A stretch of 60,268 nt of DNA, counting the filler. It is 5 parts of 5 records of this genome, joined end to end, with 100 filler letters (N's around TTAATTAATTAA, not from the genome) between each part and the next. Parts side by side here need not be neighbours in the genome. Positions count along the whole stretch, not along the records: positions 7,931 to 21,226 come from SRR31156797_9541; 4 more parts are not named here. One strand, given 5' to 3'. Positions 11,301 through 44,704 of this stretch are shown here, piece after piece (within the stretch, counting starts at the first letter, position 1; each line of letters opens with the position of its first letter). Both the position numbers and the translations under genes were made by a program. The notes beneath the pieces were generated by a model. The model was not told the DNA's origin. It ran no database searches and saw nothing but the letters and a program-made list of their open reading frames with translations.

Positions 11301-12826
11301 GCAAACTTTTGTCTAAAGAAATCTGTAAAGTTTCTATTTGCATTTGAAAAACATGCAAGAGGAGTATCATCTCCCATAGATCCTGTTGGCTCTTTTGCAT
11401 CATCAGCCATAGGGATGATCATCTGATCTAAAACTTCATAGGTAATATTTGCATATTTTTGTCTATGTGTAAGATCATCAAACATATAATCACTATGATC
11501 TAAAAATGTATCTTCAACATACTCTTGAAGATATTTCATATTATTTGTAAGCCACTTCTCATAATTTTGTGTAGATTTAAGATAATCGTTAATATCTTTA
11601 TTTTTTAAGATTGCTCCATTTTTAAGATCAATTGCGATCATTTGACCACTTTGTAATCTTCCTCTATCAATAATATCCTCTTCATCAAAAAGTACTGTTC
11701 CATATTCACTTGTGATAAAAATTCTATCATCTTTTGTTCTAAAATATTTTGATGGTCTTAAACCATTTCTATCGATCAGACACCCTACATGTCTTCCATC
11801 AGTAAGTGATACGGCAGCTGGTCCATCCCATGCTTCAAATCTAATGGCACTAAACTCATAAAATGATCGTAGTTCACTATCCATATATGGAGCATTTTGC
11901 CAAGGAGCAGGTACTAGACTTCTTGCTGCTTTAAAATAATCCATCCCATTTACCATCAAGAATTCAAACATATTATCTAAGCTAGCACTATCACTTCCAC
12001 CATCTTGTAAAATAGGGAAGATTCTTGAAAGCTCTTCATCACTAAATACTTCAGATTTAATTGATTCTGTTTTTACTGCTACATTAAATCTATTTGCTTC
12101 AATTGAGTTGATCTCTCCATTATGAGCAATTCCTCTAAATGGTTGAGCAAGTCTCCACTTTGGTAAAGTATTTGTTGAGAATCTTTGGTGAAATAGTGCA
12201 AAAGAGATCTTAAAATCTTCATCATTAAGATCTTTATAAAACTGCTTGATCGTCGTAGGCATTACAAGCCCTTTATACGCGATTACTTTTGCACTAAATG
12301 TTGGGATATAAAAATCCTCACTCTGCTTTAAATGATGCTCAGACTCTTTTCTTGCAAGATATAACATCGCTTCAAATCTTTTTGAAGAAACTAAAGTATT
12401 TGGTACTACAAATACCTGTACCATCTTTGGTAAGATTGAGAGTGCAAACTCTCCAAGAGCATCAGTATCAACTGGTACTTCTCTATTTAAAACAACTTTG
12501 AGATCATTTTTATCACAATAGCTTCTAAAAATATCTAATTGCTCTTCATCTTTTGCAAATACAAATGCTACAGCATACTGTTTTGGTAGATCCACTCCAT
12601 TTTGAAAAGCAACCTTTCTCATAAACTCATCTGGCATAGAAAGAAGTAATCCACTTCCATCCCCAGATTTACCATCAGCGGCAATCGCACCTCTATGCAT
12701 CATTCTTTCCAATGAAGTGATCGCATCTTCAAGGTTCTGATGTGTTGGTTTATTTTTTAGGTGAGCTAGTAGTCCAAACCCACAATTGTCTTTAAATGAA
12801 GTTAATTTATCTAAATTACAACCCAT
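8390..12826 (-). CDS. gltB: Glutamate synthase large subunit
   Basis: N-terminal CGFG, HQRFSTNT, FAQVTNPPID, QGAKPGEGGQLPG, CHTNKCSVGVATQ, GXGXG domain. Confidence 0.98.
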   Translation of the reverse strand: MGCNLDKLTSFKDNCGFGLLAHLKNKPTHQNLEDAITSLERMMHRGAIAADGKSGDGSGLLLSMPDEFMRKVAFQNGVDLPKQYAVAFVFAKDEEQLDIFRSYCDKNDLKVVLNREVPVDTDALGEFALSILPKMVQVFVVPNTLVSSKRFEAMLYLARKESEHHLKQSEDFYIPTFSAKVIAYKGLVMPTTIKQFYKDLNDEDFKISFALFHQRFSTNTLPKWRLAQPFRGIAHNGEINSIEANRFNVAVKTESIKSEVFSDEELSRIFPILQDGGSDSASLDNMFEFLMVNGMDYFKAARSLVPAPWQNAPYMDSELRSFYEFSAIRFEAWDGPAAVSLTDGRHVGCLIDRNGLRPSKYFRTKDDRIFITSEYGTVLFDEEDIIDRGRLQSGQMIAIDLKNGAILKNKDINDYLKSTQNYEKWLTNNMKYLQEYVEDTFLDHSDYMFDDLTHRQKYANITYEVLDQMIIPMADDAKEPTGSMGDDTPLACFSNANRNFTDFFRQKFAQVTNPPIDPYREKVVMSLNTGLGHAYNILEECPENSKRIKAASPILMKEKYDVLLSFGDEKSVHYDEDYKNRTFNTTFDGDLKQSLEKLYTDIKDAVVNDNVSIVILDDRSLGLDKKMIPIVFAVGYINQQLLEDNIRSTVSIVCVTSEIYDPHAAAVLFAFGAAVIYPYMMYASIVSFYERKNISPYELQQKLKNSSKAMGAGILKIMSKMGISTMASYRNSSLFDIIGLNDEIVKDCFHHANSDLSGLSYEDIEKRVEKIHFEAFHDDKTMFPLEMGGFYKYLDGGEYHDYAPAVTHAMHNKNATGKEDISDFKTLKKLVEGRDKKFIRDFFKFKTDKTPIAVEEVESKEDIFKRFAAAAMSCGSISVEAHEAIATAMNTIGGASNSGEGGEDPARFNTLKNSKIKQIASGRFGVTPGYLVNCEELQIKLAQGAKPGEGGQLPGAKVTEMIAKLRHTTPGVTLISPPPHHDIYSIEDLAQLIFDLKQINPTATVTVKLVSTIGVGTIAAGVAKAYADKIIISGADGGTGAAPLTSIKYTGNPWELGLVEAHNALKANHLRAQVHLQTDGGLKSGIDVVKAAMLGAESYAFGTAALTLLGCKILRICHTNKCSVGVATQDEDLREKFSGTVERLISYFTFLAEDVREILAHLGYSKMEDIIGRSDLLEVLDDEFAQKFDFQNVLRRVDGVDTCQVESNEPYDKNEESKKLLRKVMSTIENPSKPIAVAAEISNLNRSFGTLTSGEIARRYGDEGLAEDTITYNLTGVAGQSFGTFLSRGVTINLNGVANDYVGKGMNGGKIIIKPQLQGSEYAGAGNTCLYGATGGKLYVRAMVGERFAVRNSGCIAVVEGTGDSACEYMTGGIVVILGKTGINFGAGMTGGLGFIYDKDREFIDNMNQELIEALRIDTDDTELERIYLKNLLRDYVSQTESENAEYILEHFRSEIRNFWMVKPKDMKVLPLSPEQGD

Positions 12827-13087
12827 TATATTCCTTTGTTTGGTTATCTTAAGTCACGGTGATTAAGATTTTGTCTTATGTCATATCTCGAGATATTAAG
12901 ATATTAAGTTTATATTACTCATATAATTGAGAGAGTATATCTAAAATTTGTTTAAAAAGCTGTTAAATGGTATTTTTTTAGTTTACAAAATACTCATTAA
13001 TAAAATTTATTCTTATTTTAAAAGCTCTTTTGCTTATAGTTTTACTAAAAACTAAGTATAATGGGGAAAAATTTGTTAGGGTGTGGA

Positions 13088-13762
13088 ATGACTGTTGAAA
13101 ATGGAATTAAAAACTTAGATAAAATAATTACAAAAATTGAATTTGCAAGATTACAAAAAAGTGACCACCATATCGTCCAATTGCTTGCAATTAGTAAATA
13201 TTCAACAAGTGATGAGATAAAAGTTCTCTATCAAGCAGGTCAAAGAGCATTTGGAGAAAACAAAGTACAGGATCTAAAGAAAAAAATGGAAGAGCTTGAA
13301 GAGCTCCCTATTAGCTGGCATTTTGTAGGAACTTTACAAAAAAATAAGATCAACAACCTTATTGATCTAAATCCTGCTCTTATGCATTCTCTTGATTCAC
13401 TAGAATTAGCTGAAGAGTTAGATAAAAAACTAAAAGCTAAAAATAAAACTATGAATTGTCTTTTGCAGGTTAATTCAGCGTATGAGGAAACTAAAAGTGG
13501 AGTTGATCCAAAACTTGCAGTTGAAACTTATAAACAGATACAACAAAACTATCCAAATATACACCTTAAAGGGATCATGAGCATTGGTGCACATAGTGAT
13601 AATATAGAGTTAATTAAAAAAAGTTTTCAAGTCTCAAAAGAGATCTTTGATCAAATTGATGGAGATATTCTTTCGATGGGGATGAGTAGTGATTTTGATC
13701 TTGCTATTTTAAATGGAGCAACTATGGTCCGAATTGGAAGTGCTCTATTTAAGGAAAACTAG
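13088..13762 (+). CDS. yggS: PLP homeostasis protein YggS/PROSC
   Basis: AISKY, FGENKVQ, WHFVGTLQKNK, LSMGMSSDF, MVRIGS. Start may be 13061 instead. Confidence 0.93.
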   Translation: MTVENGIKNLDKIITKIEFARLQKSDHHIVQLLAISKYSTSDEIKVLYQAGQRAFGENKVQDLKKKMEELEELPISWHFVGTLQKNKINNLIDLNPALMHSLDSLELAEELDKKLKAKNKTMNCLLQVNSAYEETKSGVDPKLAVETYKQIQQNYPNIHLKGIMSIGAHSDNIELIKKSFQVSKEIFDQIDGDILSMGMSSDFDLAILNGATMVRIGSALFKEN

Positions 13763-13765
13763 CGA

Positions 13766-16744
13766 ATGAATTTTGTAACTAAACTTGTTTTTTCTATTCT
13801 CTTTTTTAGTACAACACTTCTTTATGCACAAAAAACTTTTACTGTCTCATACGATCCAGATTATGAACCTTTTTCATATCATGTAGATAATAAACCCCAT
13901 GGATTATTGATAGATATCTATACTCAATGGGCAAAAGCAAATAACTATAAAGTAAAATTCATCAATGGAAGAACATGGGATAATGCTGTAGAGCTTGCAA
14001 AGAATGGAAAAGTGGACTTTTTTTTAGGGACAGACCCTTATGAAGATTGGATGAAAGCCTCAACACCATACTATAAAACTAAAACATCTCTATTTCGTCT
14101 TATTTCATTAGATGAGAAGATCAAAACTATAGGAATCATAGGTGAAGACTACAAACAACTCCTTGAAAAAGAATTTCCAGGGATTAGAGTGCTCTCTTAT
14201 GAAACATATGATGATCTTATAAGTGACTTAGTTAAAAGTAAAATTGATGCAATCTATGATGATATCATCGCTTTATCAACTATTATTTTTCAAAAAAAAC
14301 TCAACCATTTAGTCAAACCAATACCAAAACTTTCTATCACCACGGATATTTGTGCCATATCTAATAAAAGTGAAAATACTCAGCTTTTCTCCAAAGGGTT
14401 TAAAAATATTTCAAATATAGATCTTCAAGAACTTGAAGCCAAATGGATCATCAATGAATCACAAAAATATTTTGTCAATAATCTAGGCCTTGAACTTACC
14501 AATGATGAAAAAAAATATATAGAGAGGAAAAAACTCTTAAATATCTGTATCAATCCATCTTGGGCACCAATAGAGTTTAAAAGAGAAGAAAATGCACTGG
14601 GGATCTCTTTTGATATTTTAAATATCTTAAAAGAAAAACTACAACTAGACTATCAAGTGATCACTACGTATTCTTGGAAAGAGTCCCAAGAGTTTTTAAA
14701 AGAGAAAAAATGTGATCTTTTACCAACTGCTGTAAAAACTAAAAAAAGAGAAAAGTTTGCAAACTTTACAAAACCATATTTAGAATATGATCTTGTAATC
14801 ATCACAAAAAGTGATGTGCCTGAGATTAAAAATATGAATACCCTTAGCTCTAAAACAATCTCTAGAAGAGAAGGGAGTGGATTAATTACTAAAGTAAAAA
14901 ACAACTACCCTAATATAAATGTTTTAGAGACAAAAAGTACAAAAGACTCTTTTGAAGCAATTTTAAAAGAGAAATCTGATTTTACTATTAGTACTATTCC
15001 TGTTTTTTTATACCATAAAAGTAAATATGATATACAAGGTCTAAAGATCAATGGATATACACCACTTAAATATAATCTAAGTATGGCAGTAAGAGATGAT
15101 GATCCTATACTTTTAAATATTTTAGATAAGTCTTTACAATCAATACCAAGTTCAACCTATAAACTTGTCCATGATAAATGGTCAACTGTTAAAGTAGTTG
15201 AAAAAACCAACTGGTCACTTATACTTCAAATCACAGCTTTTTTAATCGTAATAGTAATATTTATCCTTTTTTATAATAAAAAACTCTCACAAATGGTAAA
15301 AGAGAAAACTAAAGATATAGAGAAACAAAAAAATGAACTTAAAGAGTTAAGTGAATCGTTGGAGCTAAAAGTAAGTGCTAGAACAATTGAACTTGACAAT
15401 GCTATTAAAGAGATTGAAAATATTCATAAACACACCAAAGAATCGATCAGATATGCTTCACTTATACAAGGGGCTTTAATCCCTAACGATAAACTACTCA
15501 ACAGATACTTTAAAGAGAGTTTTGTTTACTGGATGCCAAAAGATACTGTAGGTGGAGATATTTGGCTCTTTAGCAAGCTACGGCATAAAGATGAGTGTTT
15601 ATTACTTTGTATAGATTGTACAGGACATGGAGTTCCAGGTGCCTTTGTAACTATGATCATAAAAGCAATTGAGAGAGAAGTGATAGCACTTATTAATGAT
15701 AATAAAAATATTGATGTAAGCCCTGCTTGGATCATGGGATACTTTAATAAAACTATGAAAGTGCTCTTAAAACAAAAAAATAAAAACAGTATCTCAAATG
15801 TTGGTTTTGATGGTGGAATCATCTATTATAATAGAAGAACTCAGATTGTTAAATTTGCTGGGGCTGAAACCTCTTTGTTTTATATGGATAAAAATAATGA
15901 ACTTCAAACTATCAAAGGAAATAGATACTCAGTTGGATATAAAAAATGTAATATGAACTATGAATATCAAGAAAATATTATTCATGTTGAAGAGGGGATG
16001 AAGTTTTATTGTACCACTGATGGATACCTTGATCAAAATGGAGGAGAGAAAGGTTTTCCATTTGGTAAAAAAAGATTTAAAGATATTATAGTAAACTATC
16101 ATAATAGTTCCATGGATGAACAAAAAGAGATCTTTGTAAACTCTATTTTACAATATGAAGCAGCTATTGAAGAGAATGAAAGAAATGACGATATGACCCT
16201 AATAGGATTTGAGATAGGACCACAATCAACTTACAAAGAAGATAATATCTTAGAGATCGTTCAATATTCAGGGGTCATTACCCAAAATGTTATAGCAGCA
16301 AGTATTGATAATATTGAATCAAAGATCGAAAATATAGGACTTATTGGAACACTGTCTACAATCACTATAGAGTACTTTCAAAATATGATGCATTATGCTA
16401 AAAATGAAGATATGGGTTCAAGACAGATCGTACCTGCAGGATCTATAGATGTGCAGCTTATCAATAATGAATATTATAAGGTCACTGCTACAAATATCAC
16501 CTCAATAGATGATAAAAATCGAATTGAACCAAGACTAGAAGAGATCTCAAAACTAGATCGAGCAGGAATTAGAAAACGATATAAAGAGCTTCGAAAAAGT
16601 GGAGAGAATACCCATGAAAAAGGTGGAGGGATTGGAATGTATGAGATTGCTAAGATATCACAAAAAATTGAGTATACCTTTGATTCAATCAATGAGGACA
16701 AATACTATTTTACCATGTCATCCATTGTGGAGAAAAAGAAGTAA
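13766..16744 (+). CDS. Membrane sensor: two periplasmic binding (SBP family 3) domains + TM + PP2C/SpoIIE phosphatase + C-terminal SiaB-type kinase
   Basis: Signal peptide; YDPDYEPFSY and NPSWAPIEF PBP starts; TM WSLILQ...FILFY; PP2C motifs VGGD, DCTGHGVPGA, TDGYLDQ, DDMT; SiaB-like YSGVITQ, EYFQNMMHY, GGGIGMYEIAK. Confidence 0.85.
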   Translation: MNFVTKLVFSILFFSTTLLYAQKTFTVSYDPDYEPFSYHVDNKPHGLLIDIYTQWAKANNYKVKFINGRTWDNAVELAKNGKVDFFLGTDPYEDWMKASTPYYKTKTSLFRLISLDEKIKTIGIIGEDYKQLLEKEFPGIRVLSYETYDDLISDLVKSKIDAIYDDIIALSTIIFQKKLNHLVKPIPKLSITTDICAISNKSENTQLFSKGFKNISNIDLQELEAKWIINESQKYFVNNLGLELTNDEKKYIERKKLLNICINPSWAPIEFKREENALGISFDILNILKEKLQLDYQVITTYSWKESQEFLKEKKCDLLPTAVKTKKREKFANFTKPYLEYDLVIITKSDVPEIKNMNTLSSKTISRREGSGLITKVKNNYPNINVLETKSTKDSFEAILKEKSDFTISTIPVFLYHKSKYDIQGLKINGYTPLKYNLSMAVRDDDPILLNILDKSLQSIPSSTYKLVHDKWSTVKVVEKTNWSLILQITAFLIVIVIFILFYNKKLSQMVKEKTKDIEKQKNELKELSESLELKVSARTIELDNAIKEIENIHKHTKESIRYASLIQGALIPNDKLLNRYFKESFVYWMPKDTVGGDIWLFSKLRHKDECLLLCIDCTGHGVPGAFVTMIIKAIEREVIALINDNKNIDVSPAWIMGYFNKTMKVLLKQKNKNSISNVGFDGGIIYYNRRTQIVKFAGAETSLFYMDKNNELQTIKGNRYSVGYKKCNMNYEYQENIIHVEEGMKFYCTTDGYLDQNGGEKGFPFGKKRFKDIIVNYHNSSMDEQKEIFVNSILQYEAAIEENERNDDMTLIGFEIGPQSTYKEDNILEIVQYSGVITQNVIAASIDNIESKIENIGLIGTLSTITIEYFQNMMHYAKNEDMGSRQIVPAGSIDVQLINNEYYKVTATNITSIDDKNRIEPRLEEISKLDRAGIRKRYKELRKSGENTHEKGGGIGMYEIAKISQKIEYTFDSINEDKYYFTMSSIVEKKK

Positions 16745-16756
16745 TCTTATATACTT

Positions 16757-17671
16757 TTACAAAATATTAAGACTATTATTTTGAGTATCTTTCAAAGCTT
16801 CTAAATGAGCTTGATTAACCCTTTCTTCCAATGAGCTATATGTATCTTGTTCTTTATATTGCGTCATTCCAATACTAAAAGTAAAAGTTACATTTGAAAG
16901 TTTTCTAGGAACATTTATAGAAGAGATAACTTTTTTAGCATCTTCAATATTTAATTTAGGAAAAATAAAATAAAAAAGATTATCCATAAAATAATACACT
17001 ATACTTTTAGCTCCCAAACCTACAGTAAAAAACTTATGAAGCCCTTTAATAATAGTATCTACATCACTATTAACCATATCTAATTGTAAAACCTTTTCAG
17101 AAAATTCATCAATTGCTAATTTTGCAATAGTTAAATCTTCTCCATGAGTTTCTACTATTTTTACTTGTTTTGTAAGAAGTGATTGAAAACTCATATTTTT
17201 AATCTCACTACTATTAATATCTCTTGATTTTATTTGTGGCTTTGTGGTTTGTTCAAACTGATGATGTATCTCATCAGTTTTATTCAGTTCTGTTTCTAGT
17301 TGAGAGGTATATTTTCTAAGATCTCTTAACTCTCTTTTTAAATTATTGATGATCTCTTTATCAGTTTGGGAATGTTTTTGTAAAACCTCTTTTGTTTTTC
17401 GATGCTCTTCAATATTATAAAGTATTTTGTCTCTGGCTTTTTGAACTGTATAATGTACATTTTCTTTTAATTGTTCATTATCTTCAATAACAGATTTTCC
17501 TATGGAATCATTCATAAGAGTTGTTTTATTAAATCTTTTAACTACTTTTTTATATTCACTTAAAAGATTTTTATATTGAAGATATGCTTCACTTTCACTT
17601 TTATAAAGTTTTAATAGATCTTCTAAAATAAATTCACTATATTCAATGGTTTTTTCTTCTCTTGTTTTCAT
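16757..17671 (-). CDS. SiaD-like coiled-coil protein with a degenerate GGDEF domain
   Basis: N-terminal coiled coil. C-terminal GGDEF-fold pattern (LTIAKLAIDEF, TFSIGMTQY, RVNQAHLEA), but YFMDNLF sits where R.GGEEF is expected. Starts 7 bp after siaC. Confidence 0.7.
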   Translation of the reverse strand: MKTREEKTIEYSEFILEDLLKLYKSESEAYLQYKNLLSEYKKVVKRFNKTTLMNDSIGKSVIEDNEQLKENVHYTVQKARDKILYNIEEHRKTKEVLQKHSQTDKEIINNLKRELRDLRKYTSQLETELNKTDEIHHQFEQTTKPQIKSRDINSSEIKNMSFQSLLTKQVKIVETHGEDLTIAKLAIDEFSEKVLQLDMVNSDVDTIIKGLHKFFTVGLGAKSIVYYFMDNLFYFIFPKLNIEDAKKVISSINVPRKLSNVTFTFSIGMTQYKEQDTYSSLEERVNQAHLEALKDTQNNSLNIL

Positions 17672-17678
17672 TCTTTAA

Positions 17679-18056
17679 CTATTTCTCAATAAGTTTTATT
17701 GAAAGTTCTTCAAAATCTTCTTGATAACCCTCTCCTATTTCAAAACTTGGCTTATTTGCCTTATCATACAACCAGTTTATTTTTAAGAAAGTTTTATCTT
17801 TATTTTCATCAAGAAAGTCAAAAAAGTCAAAAAATAGCTTTGAACTACTTGAATTAAAATAAATAATTTCCAAATCAACAGTAGTTGTCTCTTTTACTTT
17901 TCCATCAAAATAATTTTCCATCCATTCAAAAACTGGCTTATAAAATTCAAGTGTGTTTTCTGGGTAAGACTTTCCTCGAATAGTGATATAGCCTTTCTCA
18001 TATAACATTTCAACTTGTGGAGTAAACTTTGTCTCTTCTATTATCAAATCTTGCAT
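17679..18056 (-). CDS. siaC: SiaC-family regulatory phosphoprotein (DUF1987)
   Basis: TPQV, GKSYPEN..EFY.PV..W, YFNSSSSK, INWLYD; AGGAG RBS. Confidence 0.9.
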   Translation of the reverse strand: MQDLIIEETKFTPQVEMLYEKGYITIRGKSYPENTLEFYKPVFEWMENYFDGKVKETTTVDLEIIYFNSSSSKLFFDFFDFLDENKDKTFLKINWLYDKANKPSFEIGEGYQEDFEELSIKLIEK

Positions 18057-18128
18057 TTAATAACACTCCTTTATATTTTTAATTTTTTAATTCTAACCAC
18101 TCTTAGATTAATTTAGTGTAAAAATTAT

Positions 18129-20183
18129 TTATATTTTTAATCCTATTACTGTTATATCATCATTTCTATCTTCATCCCCTTGATATTCTAATAACTCTTT
18201 TATTAGTATATCTTTTTGAGTATTACACTCTTTTTTGTAGCTTTTTTCTATTATAGATCTAAAACTATCTCTTCCAAAACAAAACCCTTTTTCTCCACCA
18301 TTTTGATCTAAATAACCATCCGTAGTCAAATAAAACTGCATCCCCTCTTTTACATCTATAATATGCTCTTTAAAAGTAAAATTAATATCTGATTTTTTAT
18401 ATCCTATAGAGTGACGTGACCCTCTAATTCTTTTGAATTCATTGTTTTCATCAATATAAAATAGTGCTGTCTCTGCACCTGAAAATTTTATTTGCTGTTC
18501 TTTTTTATTATAGTAAATAATCCCAGCATCAAATCCAGCATTGGAAATACTCGTAGAGTTTTCTTGTTTTAAAAGTTTTTTCATAGTTTGATTAAAATAA
18601 CTCAAAATCCATGAAGGACTCACCTCTATATCGTCATTTGATGCAATAACTGCTGCTATTTGTCTTTCAATCGCTTTAACTAACATAGTCACAAATGCTC
18701 CAGGAACTCCATGCCCTGTACAATCTACTACCATAAGTAAGCACTCATCATCATGTCGCAACTCTTCAAATAAATAGATATCTCCACCAACTATATCTTT
18801 TGGCTCCCAAATTACAAAAAAGTCACTAAAGTATTTTTTAAATACTTTATTATCTGGGACTATTGCTTGCTGGATCAAAGAAGCATACTCAATAGAATCT
18901 TTTGTATGTTTATGGAGTTCTTCAATTTTTTGTTTTTGTTCATCAAGTTCACTTATTACTTGATTAGTTAAACTTGTCAAAGCATCTAAAACTAAAAAAT
19001 GTTTATCATTAAAAAAATTATTACAAGTTCTGTTATTTTCAGTTTTATCTAAAACTATGTTTTGATTAAAGTCTTGTGTAGATTTTCTTTCAGATAACAT
19101 TAAAATAGTCAATGAAATATTTAAAAGATGGTTTTGTCCATTTTTATGAAATATTTCTCCATAAGTAAAAAAACCAGAAATTGGTGCTATATGATTGAGA
19201 GGTTCAAGTTCTTTTACAACATCAGATTGCATAAATGTAATTCTAGACGCACAACTATATGTAAACATTGCTTCAGGATAGTAATTGTTTAACTCTTTTG
19301 TTTTTTCTTTTGTACTATCTAAAACCATATTAACATTACCAAAAGCAAATCTTACTTTATCCCCTTCATATAGGTTACCAATTGTTTGCATTGATCCATC
19401 TTCAAATTGGTGTACAAAAGTACGGCATATCTCTAGACCGTTAGAATCTTTTTTAATAAGAGGAAACTCAATAGCTGAATGTGGTAAACTTTTTTTAATA
19501 TTAGGGCCTAAGTATTTACCATAAAGTTCACTTATATTTATGCCATCAATCTCATATAATCTTGTTCCATTTATTTTTGTAACAGTCATTTCTTTTCCAA
19601 TAGGTTGCCAGTTAAGTTGATAGTCTGTATAGACTTCTAAAACTTCACTTTGTAAAGAGACTGCAACTGCACCTTTATTATAAATCCCATCATTACAAAA
19701 AACAAAAGTATTTAAAAAGTTTCCATTGTCTCCCGACATCCCTCCAGCAATTGGAATACTATTATTTACTGAGGCAATACCATCTATGACATTACTTCCA
19801 TTAGTGAGCAATCCATCAATAAAAAGAATCATTGCTTTTGTATTACTTTCGTATAAGCTACTTGCTATATCAATACCAAGTGAAAACTCATCTTTATTGA
19901 CAAAGTAGCCACTTTTAATTGCAGTATCTGAAAATTCCATTACAGATATTACAATTCCTTGGGTTCCTATTTGTCCATTATATATTTCACCAGCTGTTGT
20001 AGTTCCTATAAAAGTTACTTTCGTATCTTTTGAAGTTATAATATCTATAACTTCTTGAATCTCTAGTTCTTTGATAAAACCACTAAATATTTGTAAGAGT
20101 GTTTTTTCTGAATTGATCTTTGATAGATCTAAATTTTGTTTTAATTCACTGATCGATTGAAAGTAGTGGTTTTTAACAGTCAT
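18129..20183 (-). CDS. FIST N/C sensor domains fused to a PP2C/SpoIIE phosphatase
   Basis: FIST motifs GTTTAGEI, IAGGMSGD, WQPIG, YSCASR, GFFTYGEI; PP2C motifs VGGD, DCTGHGVPGA, TDG, DDIT. ATG at 20183 preferred. Confidence 0.88.
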   Translation of the reverse strand: MTVKNHYFQSISELKQNLDLSKINSEKTLLQIFSGFIKELEIQEVIDIITSKDTKVTFIGTTTAGEIYNGQIGTQGIVISVMEFSDTAIKSGYFVNKDEFSLGIDIASSLYESNTKAMILFIDGLLTNGSNVIDGIASVNNSIPIAGGMSGDNGNFLNTFVFCNDGIYNKGAVAVSLQSEVLEVYTDYQLNWQPIGKEMTVTKINGTRLYEIDGINISELYGKYLGPNIKKSLPHSAIEFPLIKKDSNGLEICRTFVHQFEDGSMQTIGNLYEGDKVRFAFGNVNMVLDSTKEKTKELNNYYPEAMFTYSCASRITFMQSDVVKELEPLNHIAPISGFFTYGEIFHKNGQNHLLNISLTILMLSERKSTQDFNQNIVLDKTENNRTCNNFFNDKHFLVLDALTSLTNQVISELDEQKQKIEELHKHTKDSIEYASLIQQAIVPDNKVFKKYFSDFFVIWEPKDIVGGDIYLFEELRHDDECLLMVVDCTGHGVPGAFVTMLVKAIERQIAAVIASNDDIEVSPSWILSYFNQTMKKLLKQENSTSISNAGFDAGIIYYNKKEQQIKFSGAETALFYIDENNEFKRIRGSRHSIGYKKSDINFTFKEHIIDVKEGMQFYLTTDGYLDQNGGEKGFCFGRDSFRSIIEKSYKKECNTQKDILIKELLEYQGDEDRNDDITVIGLKI

Positions 20184-20369
20184 TTTATAGAACCTTTTAA
20201 CTAATTTGAAAGCCAAGTATTTTGATCTTGAGTAAAAAGAGTATCAAATGTAAAACTATACATAACAAGAATACATATGATACTCATAATATATTTAATT
20301 TTATTTACCAACAGATCAATCCTTGGAAATATATCTTTACATATTATAACTCAAACTCTATAAACTTCA

Positions 20370-20735
20370 CTATTTTACAGTTTCTAGACCTTTATCAATC
20401 CATCCATAATTGATTCCACCATCAAGCTCATATACATTTTTATAACCAAGCTGTAAGCCCATAAGCTCACCAATTGCTTTTGTTCTATTAGCATGAGCAC
20501 ATACTAAAATAAAAGGTTGCTCTTTATCTACTACAACTTTGGTAAACTCTTCTAAAAACTTATCAAGATCGTATCTTCCAAACTCATCAAAAAAAGTGAT
20601 CTTATGACTCCCCTCAATAATTCCATAATGCTCCCACTCTTCAACTCGTCGTACATCAATAACAGCATATCCTTCTTGCTGTTTTTGTTTAAACTCTTCT
20701 GTTGAGAGTGATTTAAATGGTCCAAAATTTAACAT
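20370..20735 (-). CDS. Rhodanese-like domain protein
   Basis: IDVRR.EEW...GII.G, LVCAHANRT, YELDGGI..W. Confidence 0.88.
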   Translation of the reverse strand: MLNFGPFKSLSTEEFKQKQQEGYAVIDVRRVEEWEHYGIIEGSHKITFFDEFGRYDLDKFLEEFTKVVVDKEQPFILVCAHANRTKAIGELMGLQLGYKNVYELDGGINYGWIDKGLETVK

Positions 20736-23817: not shown

Positions 23818-25287
23818 TTAAACACTAGTTAATATAGGTGTTTTAATATTTTCTTTTTTAAAGTCTGGTGTTTTTCCAGTTTTCTGAGCCCCAATAGAGT
23901 GTAAAAAATTAATTATTTCAATATTATTAGTTGCAATTGCATAATCAAGTGCAGTATAGCCTTCTGAATCAAATGAATTCATTAATTCAAAATCACTACT
24001 AACAATTTTTTTAACTAATTCCAAATTTTCATTTTGGCAGGCTGTAATCAATATATTTTGATTATTCATATCTTTAGTGTTGGTATTTGCATTTTTCGAC
24101 ATAAGATATTCTGCTATTCTTGTTTTATTTTCGAAGACTGCATTGTGTAGAGCTGATTGACCAAAGTCATTTTTAGCTTCAATATTTACACTGTTATCAA
24201 GTAAAAATTTAACTGTTTCATATTTTTCGAAATATATTGCAAACATAAGAGGTGTTTTTCCATAAACTGCTTTTGAATTTATATCAACACCTTTATCTAA
24301 TAAAAATTTAATAGCTTCGTTACTACCATTTCCGGCAGCCATTGTTATAGGTGTTAGATCCGCAAGAGATTTGTAATTAATGTCCGCTCCGGCTTCGAAT
24401 AATGCATTTACTATTGTCATATTATTTGAAGTAATTGCAAGCATAAGAGGAGTTAATCCTTGCGAGTCCTCAAAATTAACATTAGCACCTTTATCTATTA
24501 AAGTTTGAACTAAAGATGAGTTAATACTGCCAATAGCATAATTTAAAGCTGTGTCTTGATTAATATCCACTAAAGAAATGTCTGCATTCATTTTAATTAA
24601 ATAGTTAGCTATTTGTTTTTGATCTTTTGATATCGCAAACATTAACGGTGTAGTATCCTCGAATCCTCTTGCGTTAATGTCTACACCAAATTTAATTAAT
24701 GCTTCAACAAGCTGAAAATTACCTGATGCTATTGCAAGTTCTAAAGCTGACATAGATGTTGGAGTATTTAAGGTTGCATCAGCACCATTCTCCAGTAGGA
24801 AGCTAAAAATATACATAGAATTATTAACCATAGCAGTTACCAATGGTGTCGCTCCTTCTTTAGCGAACGAGTTAACGTCGGCTCCAGCATTTACGAGACT
24901 TACTACAGCGTCATAATTTCTTAATTCAGTTGCAATTTGAATGGCTGTAATACCATCATCAGTTTGAATATTAACATCAGCTTTATATTTTATTAATATA
25001 TCAATTATTTCTAAATTCTGTAATTCTGTTGCATATATTAGAGCTGTTTTTCCATTCATATCTTTTGTATTTGGACTGTATCCTCCTTCTTTTAACCAGT
25101 ATTCAACATCCCAAACATCTTGCTTTTTAGTTGCTAATATTAACTCAGTTGTTTTTCCATCAACAACTTGCATGAAATTGGAATTATTAGAACAACCTAA
25201 AATAAAAAGTAAAACGAGTGATAATAAAATTGTAATAACTTTTGAGTTTTCACGACCAGCTTTCATTAATTTCCCTTGTAGTTTCAT
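23818..25287 (-). CDS. Ankyrin-repeat lipoprotein (~12 repeats)
   Basis: Repeated G.TPL..A/G.TAL..A...GADVN units; lipobox FILGC after a hydrophobic stretch; RBS AAGGGG. Confidence 0.9.
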   Translation of the reverse strand: MKLQGKLMKAGRENSKVITILLSLVLLFILGCSNNSNFMQVVDGKTTELILATKKQDVWDVEYWLKEGGYSPNTKDMNGKTALIYATELQNLEIIDILIKYKADVNIQTDDGITAIQIATELRNYDAVVSLVNAGADVNSFAKEGATPLVTAMVNNSMYIFSFLLENGADATLNTPTSMSALELAIASGNFQLVEALIKFGVDINARGFEDTTPLMFAISKDQKQIANYLIKMNADISLVDINQDTALNYAIGSINSSLVQTLIDKGANVNFEDSQGLTPLMLAITSNNMTIVNALFEAGADINYKSLADLTPITMAAGNGSNEAIKFLLDKGVDINSKAVYGKTPLMFAIYFEKYETVKFLLDNSVNIEAKNDFGQSALHNAVFENKTRIAEYLMSKNANTNTKDMNNQNILITACQNENLELVKKIVSSDFELMNSFDSEGYTALDYAIATNNIEIINFLHSIGAQKTGKTPDFKKENIKTPILTSV

Positions 25288-25474
25288 AACAAATACCCCT
25301 TTTAATTTAATATTGTAAAACATCTCGTTTATTATATCACAATTTTTTCAAATTACAACACTCAAAAAAACTCCTCGATTATTATATGAAAATGATTCGA
25401 AATTTCATTTGTCATAAAATCTAAAAACGAGTCAAATTTATTAAAAAAATGAGTTTATAGTCTTATTTGGCAAT

Positions 25475-31198: not shown

Positions 31199-32182
31199 TT
31201 AATCGTTTGAGCGAATTTTCACCTGAACATTCAAACCACCAGAAGTGGATCCAGAAGTCGGAATAATGGCATTGTAAATATATGGTACAGGGGGCATTCC
31301 CGATAATTTATATGGGTTTGTACCGCTAAATACGCCACAATCGCTTACACCATCAGAGGCTGCGCCAATGGCAGGGGAACCTTCTTTTAATTGCCATTTA
31401 CCATCTGTACTACCGCTCAGTTTAAATACGGAATTCATATCCACATTATATTGGTTTCCAACCGAATCAGTGCCGGCGTTTGCGAACAGATTATGTTGCA
31501 GTGTTGTATTTGAACTTGTTACAAAACCATCATAAAAAATATTGTTCTCAACTGTTGAACCATTAAAAGTATTCTCACTATTTGATCCATTTGCACATAT
31601 AATATTATTTCTAAAAGTACCCGATGAACCACTGTTCATTTGGATGTAACCTCTTATTATATTATTGCTTATAATATAGTTACTGAAATAATAATTTGAA
31701 GATGAAGATGCTTCTAATATACTTGCCGATATGTAATTTTGTTCAATAATACACTCGGAAGAAGTAGAATAATTGGTTAAATAAACTGTGGAAAGTCTAT
31801 TCCTTCTAATTACAATATTGCTTTCTTTTATTGATAAGACGGAGTTAACATAAAGACCCTGAATTACACTATTAGCAGATCCGATTTCAAAAGTTATTTC
31901 TCCAACAATTGTTCCCGCTTTTTGGGCCGGAGTAGAATCGTTTTCACCCAGAAAATACCCCATACCAATTACAGTTAATTCTTTGGTAAAAATGCAATCT
32001 CCATAGCCGGTTGATGAATTTTCGAGATAAATGACATCGCCTGCTGTGGCACCGTCATGGGCGGCTTGTAAGGTAGTATAATCTGCTAAAATTCCAGCAT
32101 TGTTATTCACACGAATAGTGTCCTGCGCATGGACAAATATGATAAATGCCATGCTTACTAATAGTAAAAATGATTTTTTCAT
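31199..32182 (-). CDS. Secreted right-handed beta-helix (pectin lyase-like fold) protein
   Basis: Signal peptide, LQAAHD.A..GDVIY, Asn-rich I.NNII repeats, L..GSPAI.A. Confidence 0.7.
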   Translation of the reverse strand: MKKSFLLLVSMAFIIFVHAQDTIRVNNNAGILADYTTLQAAHDGATAGDVIYLENSSTGYGDCIFTKELTVIGMGYFLGENDSTPAQKAGTIVGEITFEIGSANSVIQGLYVNSVLSIKESNIVIRRNRLSTVYLTNYSTSSECIIEQNYISASILEASSSSNYYFSNYIISNNIIRGYIQMNSGSSGTFRNNIICANGSNSENTFNGSTVENNIFYDGFVTSSNTTLQHNLFANAGTDSVGNQYNVDMNSVFKLSGSTDGKWQLKEGSPAIGAASDGVSDCGVFSGTNPYKLSGMPPVPYIYNAIIPTSGSTSGGLNVQVKIRSND

Positions 32183-32702
32183 GATTGAGATTTTTGATGA
32201 TGAATATTTGATCTATCTTTTGTTTTTTCCTGAACCCAAATAAAAAGAATATGCTCGAACAAGTGACGGCACATTATGCATGCAATTTGTATAAATGTAC
32301 AACATAATAAAAAGCAAGTCAAGTTTATAACATTACATTAAGCTTTTCATTATCAATGATGTGTGTTGATTTCTAACGCAATGGTGCATGAACAGTATGC
32401 TAAGAGAAATTCAAAACAAAATCCATCAGAAAATAGTTTTGCATGAGGTCCAAAATTGCATTTAGTTACATTTCAGATCAATCAAACAAATCTTTGTTAA
32501 ATATTAGGAAAGATTAGACATATATGGCCTTTAGCCAACCGAAACTCACCTAAATTAAATTTCATTCAAAAATAAAATTTGCGATTTGGAAAGCGAATTA
32601 TAAAACTTTAACCAATGCTAAATGAACCGAGCACAACGATTCCGGCTACCTAAAATATTTTCAAATCAATACTCTTTGATGTGTAATATTATTAAGAGTT
32701 TT

Positions 32703-32741
32703 AAAAAAAAAAAGGTGTTTATCCCTCAAGATAAACACCTT
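32703..32741 (-). terminator. Intrinsic terminator
   Basis: AAGGTGTTTATC/GATAAACACCTT stem with a long minus-strand T-run. Confidence 0.8.
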
Positions 32742-32760
32742 AAATTATTAAAAATATCGA

Positions 32761-33441
32761 TTAAAATCTTACACCAAGTGTAAGTGTTATGATATTAACT
32801 GAAGTTTCAACTTCTACATCAGTTTCATTATAAGGATCAGACATATGGGCATCTACCGTATGCTCTCCAAGGCCATAATAATCAAGTGCGAATGATATTT
32901 TATCAGAAATTAATACCCCACCACCTATTTTAAGACCAGTACTACCAGCAGGATCATAGGTCATAGATACCAAGGTGTTGCCTTCATATTCTAATTCTGT
33001 GGGAGTAATTATTAGCGTATTATAAACTACACCAGCTCGTGCAAATATTTTGAGTGGTTTAACTAATTCATGTTCAAAATCAACTCCAATAGCTAAAGGA
33101 ATATTCACATACTTTTGAAACGTAGCATCAATATCACCGGTAGTCATACCAGCTAAAGCTTCTTCAACATCATCCTCATAATCATCTTCTAAAGAATTAT
33201 AATGCACATCTATACCTCCAAAAACTCCAACACCTGTTGGCCCCAATGGAATTCGAAAATCAGCACCGAAGTTAAAACCAGTAGCTGCTCCTGAAGCTTC
33301 AGTGTTGTTAATATCGTCTGAGCCAAAATCTAATACAGGAATAGATGGTCCAATATGAAACGAAGATTTCACTTGCCCATATAAATTTAAAGTAAAACAA
33401 ATTGCAATACACGCAATTAAAAGAGTTTGAAATTTTTTCAT
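32761..33441 (-). CDS. Outer membrane beta-barrel protein
   Basis: Signal peptide from ATG 33441, amphipathic strands, YVNIPL, C-terminal LTLGVRF. Confidence 0.8.
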   Translation of the reverse strand: MKKFQTLLIACIAICFTLNLYGQVKSSFHIGPSIPVLDFGSDDINNTEASGAATGFNFGADFRIPLGPTGVGVFGGIDVHYNSLEDDYEDDVEEALAGMTTGDIDATFQKYVNIPLAIGVDFEHELVKPLKIFARAGVVYNTLIITPTELEYEGNTLVSMTYDPAGSTGLKIGGGVLISDKISFALDYYGLGEHTVDAHMSDPYNETDVEVETSVNIITLTLGVRF

Positions 33442-33631
33442 TTGAGTAATTATATAGTTATTAGTTTTTAATGCAGACACAATTTACTACCAAACAGGTT
33501 TGGTTCTGGTAAATTAGTTACTGAACAAAAATAATAAAATGAATTATTTTTGAAAATACCTATATAACAGCAAAGCTTAGTATTTTAATATTGAAAACAA
33601 GTATCAAATTGATTTACAATACAATATCTAC

Positions 33632-35761
33632 TTATCTCCTTATCACCACTTTTTTCGACATTGTTATGTTAGGGGAAGTGATGTTCACAATGTAAATCCC
33701 GTTCGTAAAATCATCAATATTATTCAATATAATGATATTACTACCGGAAACTAAATAGGCATCTTTAGAAATAATAGTCTGTCCCAGCCCATTACTCATT
33801 TTGATCTGAACCGTTTCATTGTAATCAGATTCAATCTTTACATTCAATTTATTCCTTACAGGATTCGGGTAAATATTCACACTTGCCTGATTCATATTGC
33901 TTTCAATTCCAACAAAACTCGATGTGTAATTAAAACTCCAACCACTAGCAGTATTAGTTGGCCCTGTAGAGAATTGCAGAATGATCTTACCTGATGGAAT
34001 CGTCAATGACGTAGGAATATTTGTATAATTGAAATTTCCAACCAATGTGGCTGCTCCAATACTATCGTGGTGTATTAAAATTCGGTCACTCATACTTTCT
34101 TCGAGATCAAATTCAGTGAATTCCAATGTAATGCTATTCATGCCTTCTGGCTCCAATACCCATTTACAGTATTCCGAATTATTGTAATCACAATCATCAG
34201 ACCCATCACTAATGGTTCCGCTAGTAGCTGTAATCTCCTTATATTCATCACAATAACCCGAAGTAAAGGAAATATCCCAACCATTGGCTACATCTGAACC
34301 ATCGGTAATAAACTGAATTAGAACTGCACCAGCATCAACACGTGTCCAGGTTGGTTCATTAGAATTACTCAATTCCGGAGGATTAGCATAATTGAATGTA
34401 GCTGCAACACCAGAACCAACATCTGCTCCATTATAGATTATTACATTGTCACCTTCACCCAAATCAAATCGATCGAATACAATATTCACATACTGACCAC
34501 ATTCTGGTTGGATAATCCAACTGCAACTCAAGTTATCCTCATAATTATGCAAGCTACTTCCATCATTGAGTGTACCACTATTTCCTGAAACAACTTGATC
34601 TACACTGCATCCGGTTGGATAAGAATAATTACTTGTGTCAGGATAAATATCCTTAATTACTTCCTGGTGATAATTAAAGTTATAACCTGACGGATTGAGA
34701 TTATCCAAATAATAATAGCCATCTGATGTGCCGCCCCAACCCATGTTCAAATGAAAATATTCTTCCGTTTGATATCCATCCATTACCATAGCATGTCCAC
34801 TTTCAGGGTCAGTTGGATGCCAACCAGCATAATACATTGGTTTTCGATCGTCTAAATTGGTCAATAAAATACTATCCCAGTTTAAATCTGTAGAATCTCT
34901 GAAAATATAATGTGTTTCAGGGCTATATTTAAAATAAGTACGAAGCGCTTTATCAGCACTATAATTCCACATTCCTGAAGAAGTTGGACCATATTCCATA
35001 TCTACAGCTACGCCGGCATGATGCATCAGTTGAGCAACTTCAAAATTAGGCTCATGCAACTCATTGAGCATGTTATTCCATCCATAGGTTGCTTCGTCAT
35101 AATTAACAGATATTGTTCCATATACCGGATGCTCATACGAATAAGAACCAATACCTGTTTCTGGAAACTTATGATAATACATTAACTGTGCAAGTGCAGT
35201 GGCCACACAACCTGTAACAGCATTCCCTCCAGCACCATTTTCATCTTCCGGACACATATCGTTGTAATAATTACCCTGAGCCCAGGTAGTCACTACCATA
35301 GGCTCCAAGGCTCGTTCATGACAAATTGCGAGCTGATTTTTATCTGAAAGTCTTGCCCATCGCTGCTGAATTTGGTCTGTTGCTTCTAAATTGTTCTCTT
35401 TGGCATATTGAATTTGTTCTTTGTACCTAGCCAACCACATATTAAAAGCTGGTGGATAATTATTTATATCAAAATTATCTTCAAGGCTATAAAACAATAC
35501 TGGAATGGTACTTCGTGAGGTTGAAACACCCACAAATCCCAAACCGTCTAGTTCAACTATATATAAATCAGTTTGATCCTCTCCAATGAGATGGATTGCT
35601 TTGGTTTTAATTTCATTCAAATCAACTTTCTGAAATTGATTAGCTCGTTCATAAAAGAAATGCTTTGCAATAATTTCTGCTTCTGAAGATTTAACTGTTT
35701 GCGCAAAACTGTGTGCGACAATACTTAAAACTATTACTGGAATGGTCATAAACTTTTTCAT
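33632..35761 (-). CDS. C10-family (streptopain-like) cysteine peptidase with propeptide, two CUB domains and a T9SS C-terminal domain
   Basis: TGCVATA.AQ (Cys), GHAMVMDGY (His), HLNMGWGG; CUB motifs Y.DN..C.W.I...F..F; IYPNP...GIYIV...KKVV. Confidence 0.9.
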   Translation of the reverse strand: MKKFMTIPVIVLSIVAHSFAQTVKSSEAEIIAKHFFYERANQFQKVDLNEIKTKAIHLIGEDQTDLYIVELDGLGFVGVSTSRSTIPVLFYSLEDNFDINNYPPAFNMWLARYKEQIQYAKENNLEATDQIQQRWARLSDKNQLAICHERALEPMVVTTWAQGNYYNDMCPEDENGAGGNAVTGCVATALAQLMYYHKFPETGIGSYSYEHPVYGTISVNYDEATYGWNNMLNELHEPNFEVAQLMHHAGVAVDMEYGPTSSGMWNYSADKALRTYFKYSPETHYIFRDSTDLNWDSILLTNLDDRKPMYYAGWHPTDPESGHAMVMDGYQTEEYFHLNMGWGGTSDGYYYLDNLNPSGYNFNYHQEVIKDIYPDTSNYSYPTGCSVDQVVSGNSGTLNDGSSLHNYEDNLSCSWIIQPECGQYVNIVFDRFDLGEGDNVIIYNGADVGSGVAATFNYANPPELSNSNEPTWTRVDAGAVLIQFITDGSDVANGWDISFTSGYCDEYKEITATSGTISDGSDDCDYNNSEYCKWVLEPEGMNSITLEFTEFDLEESMSDRILIHHDSIGAATLVGNFNYTNIPTSLTIPSGKIILQFSTGPTNTASGWSFNYTSSFVGIESNMNQASVNIYPNPVRNKLNVKIESDYNETVQIKMSNGLGQTIISKDAYLVSGSNIIILNNIDDFTNGIYIVNITSPNITMSKKVVIRR

Positions 35762-36082
35762 GATGGTAGATTTAAATTGGGATATAAAGATAAGGGTTTA
35801 ATGCATAACAAAATAAATCGGACACTTTGATTTTCATAACTTAACCCATATACACCTCATTTTCGTTGGAGTTAGAGTTGAATTACTATTAATATTCCTA
35901 ACTTTATAATCATATAAAATAGATTCATGCGAGCAGTCAAAATTCTCGTGTGTTATAAAACTAAACATGTGAAAGTATTATGCCAGGAACTCTAGCCATC
36001 ACTTTTAGATGATAAGCTAAACGACCGACAGAGGATCAATGATCACAACATACTAATTATAAATGAGTTGACTACTTGATTT

Positions 36083-36784
36083 TTATATTTCAACAATTTT
36101 AAGAAAATAACCAACTAAATCAACTGTATACTTTTTACCTGCTTCGAATTCATGAGTAAATTCCTTAATTTTTCTTGATGAAGATATTCCACTTCCTCCG
36201 GATACTTCTGCCACTAAATTATGTTTACCAGGTTCTAAATAAATTGTAAATGTACCATTCATCCCATTATGAAAACCAAGTCTTGATGGCCCCCAATAGT
36301 CATCTATTCTCCTTAATCGAAAATGTTTAGGGCCTCCAATATTTCCTTCTTTTTGATATTGTTCTTTACTAAATGTAAGTATTGCAACTTTACTATCTTC
36401 TGTTTCTTTTGTCAGTCTCGAAACTCCATTTTTGTTTTCCACACTTACTTTTTTGAATGCCACTTCCTTCATTTTCTTTCCATTCTCTTTCAATGTTAAA
36501 GGTTTGCCTTTGCTCAACTTATAAGTAGCACCTGGTTTCATATCAATAGTAAACTGATATACATCTTTCCATGTAGTAAAAACAAAAGTATGCGATCCGG
36601 GATCAAGCTTAACAGTAGCCTTTTTGTAAGCATTACTGTAAAAGAAAATATAGTTATCACCATACTTATCATCAATTGAATACAAAATACCTTTACTTGC
36701 TGTAAATGTTGATTTTTGTGCATTCAATCCCAGATTAATGAGTACAATTAAAACTGTTAATGCTGAAATTACAAGATTTTTCAT
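36083..36784 (-). CDS. Secreted hypothetical protein with two similar small beta domains
   Basis: Signal peptide; L.PG.H...PG/AG.TY/KY pattern occurs twice. Confidence 0.6.
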   Translation of the reverse strand: MKNLVISALTVLIVLINLGLNAQKSTFTASKGILYSIDDKYGDNYIFFYSNAYKKATVKLDPGSHTFVFTTWKDVYQFTIDMKPGATYKLSKGKPLTLKENGKKMKEVAFKKVSVENKNGVSRLTKETEDSKVAILTFSKEQYQKEGNIGGPKHFRLRRIDDYWGPSRLGFHNGMNGTFTIYLEPGKHNLVAEVSGGSGISSSRKIKEFTHEFEAGKKYTVDLVGYFLKIVEI

Positions 36785-36868
36785 GATTTAAAATATTAAT
36801 AATAATTACCTTAAAAATAGAAAACTAATTCAATATAACAAAGCATAAAAACCAAGCCATTTGAAAAA

Positions 36869-38221: not shown

Positions 38222-38242
38222 TTTGAAACAAATTTTAGATTG

Positions 38243-38299
38243 CAAAGATAGGTAAAAGTCTCGTTTATATAATTTATCATGATTTTTCACGTACATTTG
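38243..38299. promoter_or_regulatory. Divergent Bacteroidota -7 promoter boxes
   Basis: TAnnTTTG on the plus strand (TACATTTG 38292-38299) and on the minus strand (TATCTTTG 38250-38243). Confidence 0.6.
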
Positions 38300-38324
38300 C
38301 GGTTCAATTCGAAATAAATCAATT

Positions 38325-39467: not shown

Positions 39468-39478
39468 ACTCTAATATT

Positions 39479-40807: not shown

Positions 40808-40834
40808 AAAAAGCTATTCTTCCACATTCTTAAT

Positions 40835-41554: not shown

Positions 41555-41692
41555 TGTACGAAATTAAAATACACAATAGACTATTCACATTTAAAATTAG
41601 ACATATTATTCTCGACAAAAAAGTTATATAATAAATTAAATTATGTATAATCCTTCAAAATGAAAGAGATAAATACCTTATCCAGAATTGTA

Positions 41693-42100: not shown

Positions 42101-42212
42101 TGGTTTAAATAGTTGGTTATTAACTCAAAATTAAAATAAATACTGAAATTTCAGCCATGTGAATTGAAATTTATTCGCATTTTGATATAACAATCATGAA
42201 ATCAGATGGAAA

Positions 42213-43277: not shown

Positions 43278-43302
43278 CAAATTGAATATTTCCAGCAATT
43301 AT

Positions 43303-44696: not shown

Positions 44697-44704
44697 TCCT
44701 ATTT

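Follow-up and report, generated by a model that had tools for sequence, protein, structure and literature searches.

A transmembrane receptor of a marine Arcobacter-like bacterium with SiaA-like phosphatase and SiaB-like kinase domains in one chain

The subject of this study is a single gene in a 60,268-nucleotide stretch of DNA (hereafter the window), which consists of five parts of five records joined by filler letters and along which all positions are counted. The gene lies in the part taken from record SRR31156797_9541, its source is a marine Arcobacter-like bacterium, and it encodes a sensor protein of 992 amino acids (aa). This sensor is best explained as a receptor that carries a SiaA-type PP2C phosphatase and a SiaB-type GHKL Ser/Thr kinase as a joined pair of opposing outputs, a reading to which we assign a probability of roughly 0.6. 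In the characterized Pseudomonas system, SiaA and SiaB are separate proteins, as the initial annotation of this DNA had stated (PMC12834913, PMC8457831).

Architecture of the sensor

From the N to the C terminus, the protein is predicted to comprise a signal peptide, two solute-binding domains, a membrane helix, a coiled coil, the PP2C domain, a linker and the SiaB-like domain (Table 1). Pfam assigns SBP_bac_3 to two stretches of the sensor (expectation value (E) 3.5e-30), in keeping with the two periplasmic binding protein domains of the initial annotation. In a PDB sequence search, the BvgS periplasmic domain (4q0c) matched aa 135-472 (E 1.7e-17), and the periplasmic part also matched EvgS (9ilw, E 9.1e-14) and 7ejg (E 4.5e-23). 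Past the N terminus, aa 483-505 form the sole strongly hydrophobic stretch (mean Kyte-Doolittle value above 1.8 in 19-residue windows), and a BvgS-type layout is present: two solute-binding domains, followed by one membrane helix. The reading frame of the PP2C domain runs on within the same uninterrupted open reading frame (ORF), as first noted, for ~176 aa by our count (~170 aa in the earlier estimate), and every motif named at that time occurs exactly once in the protein.

The SpoIIE profile PF07228 covers aa 611-815 (E 2.6e-14; 54 bits, cut-off 25), and the solved SiaA-PP2C structure 6k4e matches aa 530-816 (E 1.6e-48, PDB sequence search). The SiaA family NF038263 aligns to aa 515-817 through profile positions 369-657, its C-terminal half (E 6.8e-70, NCBIfam); both of these alignments take in part of the helix on the N-terminal side of the PP2C domain. 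Four motifs, GGD, DxxGHG, TDG and DD, which we take to be the acidic metal-site motifs of PP2C phosphatases, line up identically with SiaA and are at least 95% conserved in an alignment of 121 rows, consisting of the sensor and the 120 fused homologues listed. The intact PP2C domain that had been proposed is therefore upheld by all four motifs and by a profile score above the cut-off.

The kinase domain is recognized by a single Pfam family, DUF6272 (PF19788, aa 863-982, E 1.5e-21; 76.9 bits, cut-off 26.6); neither a HATPase nor a Response_reg family was found in the sensor at E ≤ 0.01. SiaB itself (6kko_A) matches the domain in a PDB sequence search (E 7.6e-9); like the other domain matches, this one lies well above the level of chance. 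The score against the SiaB equivalog NF038264 is 47.9 bits, below its cut-off of 225. An AlphaFold2 model of the domain, with a predicted local distance difference test (pLDDT) score of 94.3, returned SiaB 6kko_A as its top Foldseek match (TM 0.76, E 5.1e-8), ahead of the anti-sigma-factor kinases SpoIIAB, UsfX and RsbW (with probability 0.99-1.0, E 2e-3 to 6e-2 and TMt 0.57-0.71). Histidine kinases, PDK and Hsp90 rank below these at lower scores. The predicted fold, the N-box (E..QN) and the Gly-rich box (KGGGIG..EIAK), both at least 95% conserved in the 121 rows, place the domain in the GHKL (Bergerat-fold) superfamily; the SiaB/GHKL-like character read from the motifs thus agrees with a structural ranking in which SiaB comes first and anti-sigma-factor kinases second. 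In 89 fused and stand-alone SiaB sequences, the sensor included, the domain residues E46, N50, Y54, G132 and G134 (E869, N873, Y877, G955 and G957 of the protein) are invariant. The catalytic residues of SiaB are here deduced from this family conservation.

Reality and recurrence of the fusion

Logan contigs of run X1, which may itself be the source of the DNA, show 0 differences over positions 15400-16800. A 735-nucleotide contig from the independent marine-sediment run X2 covers 16088-16795, and with it the junction between the two output domains, with 14 substitutions and no indel; when these substitutions are put into the frame, it stays open and carries 6 amino-acid changes. The sequences contributed by runs X3 and X4 were short or incomplete, matched conserved PP2C regions at 90-95% in most cases, and were uninformative on the sensor gene. 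The architecture also recurs in other proteins. PF07228 and PF19788 are both present in 120 of the 120 homologues listed for aa 560-992 (54-72% identity), and the name given by NCBI, where there is one, is 'SiaB family protein kinase'; these entries come from metagenome-assembled genomes of Campylobacterota or Arcobacteraceae. When the C-terminal domain was searched against 1.84 billion representatives of 50%-identity clusters, 1150 matches had E ≤ 1e-3 and 59 had E ≤ 1e-30; 46 of these 59 closest representatives are at least 400 aa long and carry the domain at their extreme C terminus.

The initial annotation had named a stop or misassembly at the junction as a risk, which the X2 contig dispels, and the SpoIIE-SiaB fusion that it described is the architecture of every homologue listed. 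The junction is not chimeric and the fusion is real. That an assembly chimera or a read-through artefact joined two genes has a negligible probability in the face of a bridging contig with an open frame, the 120 homologues and the long cluster representatives.

The inputs that precede the PP2C-SiaB module vary. By a tally made from the domain table, the N-terminal domains of the homologues listed include PAS, SBP_bac_3 (22 of 120), Cache, REC, FIST, GAF, NMT1 and others.

A Sia-like module around the sensor gene

A convergent minus-strand operon encoding three proteins lies 12 bases past the sensor stop codon, with siaC 935 base pairs (bp) from the sensor gene. The SiaC protein matches 6kko_C/6k4f (E 4e-17), and its Ser69, part of an NSSS motif that is invariant in 13 of 13 SiaC sequences, stands at the position of Thr68, the phospho-acceptor of Pseudomonas SiaC (PMC8457831, PMC12834913). 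At the head of the operon, the FIST-PP2C protein contains a PP2C domain that shares 59% identity with its counterpart in the fusion and whose end corresponds exactly to the start of the fusion's linker. It has no kinase domain and a weak NosP-like match (E 3.2e-15), far below the cut-off. The operon therefore includes a phosphatase but no kinase gene, and the 42 other ORFs scanned in the window yielded no further SiaB or SiaC.

The third protein of the operon, 304 aa long, has no Pfam match and matches the SiaD family NF038266 at E 2e-4 (NCBIfam). Its AlphaFold2 model features a long helical stalk and a GGDEF fold (pLDDT 81.8), and the best Foldseek match is 7e6g, a structure of SiaD with SiaC (E 2.9e-10). 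At the position of GGEEF in 7e6g, the protein reads FMDNLF; the GG[DE]EF signature is present in 0 of 22 members of its family. The 20 homologues found are all ~300 aa long and mostly have no Pfam match. As predicted from sequences and models, all four parts of the local module have Sia counterparts, but the kinase is fused, there are two phosphatase inputs and the cyclase is degenerate. Because the GGDEF site is degenerate, its output is probably a protein-protein or cyclic di-GMP (c-di-GMP)-binding event and not c-di-GMP synthesis.

A predicted complex links the kinase domain to the neighbouring SiaC. The pair scored 0.61, compared to 0.00 for the best control; 51 of 78 solved complexes attain the mark it passed, as do 2 of 108 mismatched pairs. 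At least 87% of contacts were shared between runs, and the pLDDT of the partners was at least 90. SiaC residues 65-69, including Ser69, are predicted to pack against residues 42, 45, 46 and 49 of the kinase domain, that is, against the N-box. The pass may nonetheless be a memory of the solved SiaB-SiaC structure 6kko; it speaks for likeness and not for binding of the present copy. Independent genomic support comes from two related genomes, in each of which a fused gene is directly followed by siaC: one encodes a 1732-aa protein with two SBP_bac_3 domains, PAS, PP2C and SiaB, and its siaC is followed by a gene for a weak-GGDEF protein (L013); the other encodes an 803-aa REC-PAS-PP2C-SiaB protein (L015).

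Proposed mechanism and alternatives

In the mechanism that we propose, the kinase domain would phosphorylate SiaC at Ser69 and the PP2C domain would remove the phosphate. The signal of a ligand bound at the BvgS-like domains would pass through the membrane helix and the coiled coil and chiefly affect the phosphatase, which is the most likely point of control because the PP2C domain separates the kinase from the signalling helix. The tethered kinase would provide a fixed, stoichiometric counter-activity, and the receptor would set the unphosphorylated fraction of SiaC. As the Pseudomonas system suggests, SiaC without its phosphate would dock on the helical stalk of the 304-aa SiaD-like protein. 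The FIST-PP2C protein would relay a second signal, from the cytoplasm, to the same pool of SiaC. The initial annotation had proposed a bifunctional kinase-phosphatase. Bifunctionality is well supported by the two domains in one chain, the retention of family-invariant residues and the adjoining siaC; what stood is this arrangement, and the two activities themselves stay predictions from sequence.

How the two activities would be coupled separates the proposed mechanism from a reciprocal switch, in which a ligand flips the receptor from kinase-on/phosphatase-off to the reverse state, like a bifunctional histidine kinase. Such a switch is a serious contender, if on balance an unlikely one. The linker is short and nearly constant (16-22 residues between DDxT and Y.G in the 121 rows; 22 in 84 of 121), which would permit conformational coupling, and HsbR, with the same domain order, is described as toggling between kinase and phosphatase modes with receiver phosphorylation (PMC6482189). 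However, a whole PP2C domain lies between kinase and signalling helix, and the Pseudomonas signal input has been placed at SiaA (PMC12834913). A constitutive tethered kinase combined with a regulated phosphatase appears at least as likely as the reciprocal switch.

A different doubt concerns the kinase itself. The SiaB-like domain might be non-enzymatic and either dock or sequester SiaC near the phosphatase or block SiaC in the manner of an anti-sigma factor, with a separate SiaB, encoded elsewhere in the genome, doing the phosphorylation. Stand-alone SiaB genes (~180 aa) do coexist with fused forms in related genomes, the third domains of CrsR and HsbR also act by partner binding (PMC6482189), and the NF038262 score falls slightly short of its cut-off. 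Yet the E and N of the N-box and the Gly-rich box show little or no variation in the fused clade and are shared with stand-alone SiaB; because these nucleotide-site residues are conserved, a pure docking role is disfavoured, and we regard it as improbable. The sensor might also be an orphan that serves a general SiaC pool or another substrate, its adjacency to the siaC operon being incidental. This would agree with the convergent orientation of the gene, which follows a YggS-like gene at a distance of 3 bp, with the five related genomes, where 8 of the 10 fused frames lack a SiaC match on their contig, and with the fused genes at L009 and L011, which have no siaC in the flanks examined. It is hard to square with a local operon that has no kinase gene and with the lack of another SiaB or SiaC in the window; the complex prediction also passed, though a pass cannot tell which family member binds. 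On this evidence, we consider an orphan sensor rather unlikely.

Several observations weigh against the opposing-pair reading as a whole. The function of the fused family is a prediction from sequence and structure models. Some NCBIfam scores fall below their cut-offs: SiaB_fam_kinase NF038262 matches aa 831-987 with 82.5 bits, just below the cut-off of 85 (NCBIfam), and the SiaA equivalog NF038263 scores 236.4 bits, far below the cut-off of 700, so the sensor is, by its sequence, a SiaA-like output half and not SiaA itself. The search for further SiaB and SiaC copies covers the window, and other copies may exist elsewhere in the genome. The sensor gene, being convergent to the siaC operon, is not co-transcribed with it. 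A SiaC match shares the contig with only 2 of the 10 PP2C+DUF6272 frames of the five related genomes, and both siaC-linked frames fall outside the sensor's clade; most clade members are therefore orphans with a presumed substrate.

Relation to characterized systems

The nearest characterized system is SiaABCD by homology and HsbR/CrsR by logic. SiaABCD of Pseudomonas aeruginosa consists of the PP2C phosphatase SiaA, the kinase SiaB, the DUF1987 phosphoprotein SiaC and the diguanylate cyclase SiaD. All four protein types have homologues here, as indicated by the matches to 6k4e, 6kko_A, 6kko_C and 7e6g, and the SiaC acceptor position is kept, with Ser in place of Thr68. In contrast to SiaABCD, SiaA and SiaB form one chain at the locus studied, gene order and strands differ, the sensor has tandem periplasmic solute-binding domains, the operon contains the extra FIST-PP2C phosphatase, and the local SiaD-like protein lacks the GG[DE]EF signature of an active SiaD.

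HsbR of P. aeruginosa and CrsR of Shewanella oneidensis combine REC, PP2C and a GHKL kinase/anti-sigma domain in one chain (PMC6482189). Like the sensor, they place a GHKL Ser/Thr kinase after the PP2C domain and have a small phosphoprotein with a STAS-like fold as their target. The sensor does not belong to this group: it is a transmembrane receptor, whereas HsbR and CrsR are soluble and receive their input through a receiver domain, and it pairs a DUF6272 kinase with a DUF1987 substrate where they pair an RsbW/HATPase-type kinase with STAS. Receiver, kinase type and substrate thus all differ and the logic is shared; CrsR, in addition, sequesters RpoS (PMC6482189). With BvgS and EvgS (4q0c, 9ilw), the sensor shares the tandem solute-binding domains, the one membrane helix and the cytoplasmic helix, but its predicted output is a pair of PP2C and Ser/Thr kinase rather than a histidine kinase phosphorelay.

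A Campylobacterota survey (Mo et al. 2022, 10.1101/2022.03.11.484041) described bifunctional PP2C-STYK proteins with an N-terminal REC domain and cites the SiaABCD precedent. That survey searched with SpoIIE PF07228 and HATPase PF13581 and names a STAS target; DUF6272 is absent from its main text, which the comparison made here covers. In the literature searched, mostly judged by title or the start of the abstract, no description of a Sia-type SiaA-SiaB fusion was found and DUF6272 was not mentioned; the DUF1987 paper PMC8457831 does not contain the word 'fused'. The arrangement is nevertheless neither rare nor unprecedented, since all 120 homologues listed share it and single chains with PP2C and GHKL domains are known from HsbR and CrsR (PMC6482189). 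The sensor follows the design established for those proteins and not a new principle; the Sia-type version is unstudied.

Should both domains have the activities predicted for them, one natural receptor would unite the writer and the eraser of a Ser/Thr phospho-switch. The interest lies mainly in a reusable two-activity transmitter cassette and in a non-cyclase output. The reuse of the module behind many sensors points to a compact, transplantable signalling cassette, which would offer a test bed for whether output becomes independent of protein levels when opposing enzymes are fused. Outside Pseudomonas, Sia-type switches appear to be wired to outputs besides an active diguanylate cyclase, with a degenerate GGDEF protein here and HD-GYP-like proteins in relatives. 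For annotation, we suggest 'fused SiaA/SiaB-like phosphatase-kinases', given that 'SiaB family protein kinase' names one activity of two. More tentatively, the PP2C-SiaB cassette (~430 aa) could be the transmitter in a large class of as yet unstudied Campylobacterota receptors with two Ser/Thr activities, parallel to bifunctional histidine kinases, in which many sensors converge on one SiaC switch; here that switch would drive a catalytically dead GGDEF scaffold, with an output independent of c-di-GMP synthesis.

Distribution and history of the fusion

In the family of genome G001, 34 of 121 genomes have a DUF6272 match and 6 a fused frame that is 400 aa long or longer; at the level of its phylum, DUF6272 exceeds the cut-off in 16 of 401 genomes, and a fused frame of this length is present in 2. 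The matches in the family sample are mostly stand-alone frames of ~185 aa. By these counts, the fusion is common in metagenome protein catalogues yet confined to a minority of sampled species. Each of the five related genomes holds 4-7 SiaA-type PP2C, 2-6 DUF6272 and 1-6 SiaC matches, and fused copies equal or exceed SiaC in 4 of the 5.

In a FastTree phylogeny of 252 SiaB domains, one clade contains 150 of the 153 fused rows; it also takes in 29 short rows, a large share of them probably fragments. A quick IQ-TREE analysis was run on 69 rows, made up of a random 22 fused and 34 stand-alone sequences and the locus sequences. On the SiaB-domain tree, the sensor falls within a well-supported clade of fused proteins only (98*, 13 rows). 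A single origin of the fusion is ruled out by 8 changes of the fused/stand-alone label on the IQ-TREE phylogeny, at least 5 of which are forced by starred branches. Fusion or fission has therefore occurred more than once; gains and losses are indistinguishable on this unrooted tree.

Other arrangements of the same domains were encountered. Tandem SiaB-like stretches make up a class of 19 among the 320 proteins gathered (P0260, P0263, P0266 and others of ~360 aa, and P0199 of 1439 aa), and FIST-PP2C-DUF6272 fusions occur as well, for example P0100 and P0104. A further type of SiaB fusion, LapD_MoxY_N-GGDEF-EAL-DUF6272 (794 aa, L018:8004-10388, minus strand), clusters with a LapD-like GGDEF-EAL protein, two stand-alone SiaB genes, SiaC and an HD_5 protein. 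HD_5 (HD-GYP-like) proteins stand beside a SiaB-SiaC pair at four loci (L014:4926-6281, L018:2375-3820, L021:3611-4381 and L022:2877-4280), which suggests that the controlled output there is c-di-GMP breakdown and not synthesis. The remaining neighbours of SiaC include a HATPase-CheX protein (L016) and ~500-aa proteins without a family match (L017, L020, L022).

Genomic context

Table 1 Positions of the sensor gene, its domains and motifs, and the adjoining siaC operon. Nucleotide positions refer to the window and aa positions to the sensor protein.
Feature	Position	Strand	Evidence
Whole gene, 992-aa transmembrane SiaA-SiaB fusion sensor	13766..16744	+	Single uninterrupted ORF and domain matches
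Hydrophobic N terminus, putative signal peptide or anchor, aa 1-21	13766..13828	+	MNFVTKLVFSILFFSTTLLYA, by eye from translation
Tandem periplasmic solute-binding (Venus-flytrap) domains, ~aa 22-235 and 244-475	13829..15190	+	Pfam, PDB matches
Single transmembrane helix, aa 483-505	15212..15280	+	Kyte-Doolittle
Cytoplasmic coiled-coil or signalling helix, aa 506-589	15281..15532	+	Aligns to helix preceding PP2C in SiaA
SiaA-type PP2C (SpoIIE) phosphatase domain, aa 590-816	15533..16213	+	PF07228, 6k4e, motifs
GGD (in VGGDIW)	aa 595-600	+	Motif search
DCTGHG	aa 617-622	+	Motif search
TDG (in TTDGY)	aa 750-754	+	Motif search
DD (in NDDMT)	aa 807-811	+	Motif search
Short interdomain linker, aa 817-830	16214..16255	+	Low conservation
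SiaB-type kinase domain (DUF6272, GHKL fold), aa 831-992	16256..16741	+	PF19788, AlphaFold2, Foldseek
EYFQNMMHY	aa 869-877	+	Motif search
GGGIGMYEIAK	aa 953-963	+	Motif search
SiaD-like stalk and degenerate GGDEF-fold protein, 304 aa, likely SiaC partner	16757..17671	-	AlphaFold2, Foldseek
SiaC (DUF1987) phosphoprotein, likely substrate	17679..18056	-	PF09345, E 2.5e-35
Ser69 codon of SiaC	17850-17852	-	Alignment to Pseudomonas Thr68
Second, cytoplasmic SiaA-type phosphatase FIST_N-FIST_C-PP2C, 695 aa	18129..20216	-	PF08495, PF10442, PF07228

The YggS-like gene upstream of the sensor gene (13061-13762, plus strand) encodes a pyridoxal phosphate-binding protein (Ala_racemase_N), and the two genes may be co-transcribed. 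At locus L001, an alanine racemase gene precedes that of a REC-PAS-PP2C relative. Scans of positions 12800-20500 for promoters (50 promoter-like sites; 44.8 +/- 6.8 in shuffles) and terminators (2 terminator-like sites; 2.2 in shuffles) were uninformative.

Farther along the window, a minus-strand gene at 33632-35761 encodes a C10 peptidase with CUB domains and Por_Secre_tail, a type IX secretion sorting domain that is unexpected in a Campylobacterota-like window. Guanine-cytosine content is 0.31-0.41 at ~32-52 kb, compared to 0.25-0.30 in most of the rest, and the region of ~32000-52000 may have been acquired or may reflect a mixed contig. Genes for an ankyrin-repeat protein (23818-25323) and for a ricin-lectin protein of 1115 aa (48877-52224) lie near that of the peptidase.

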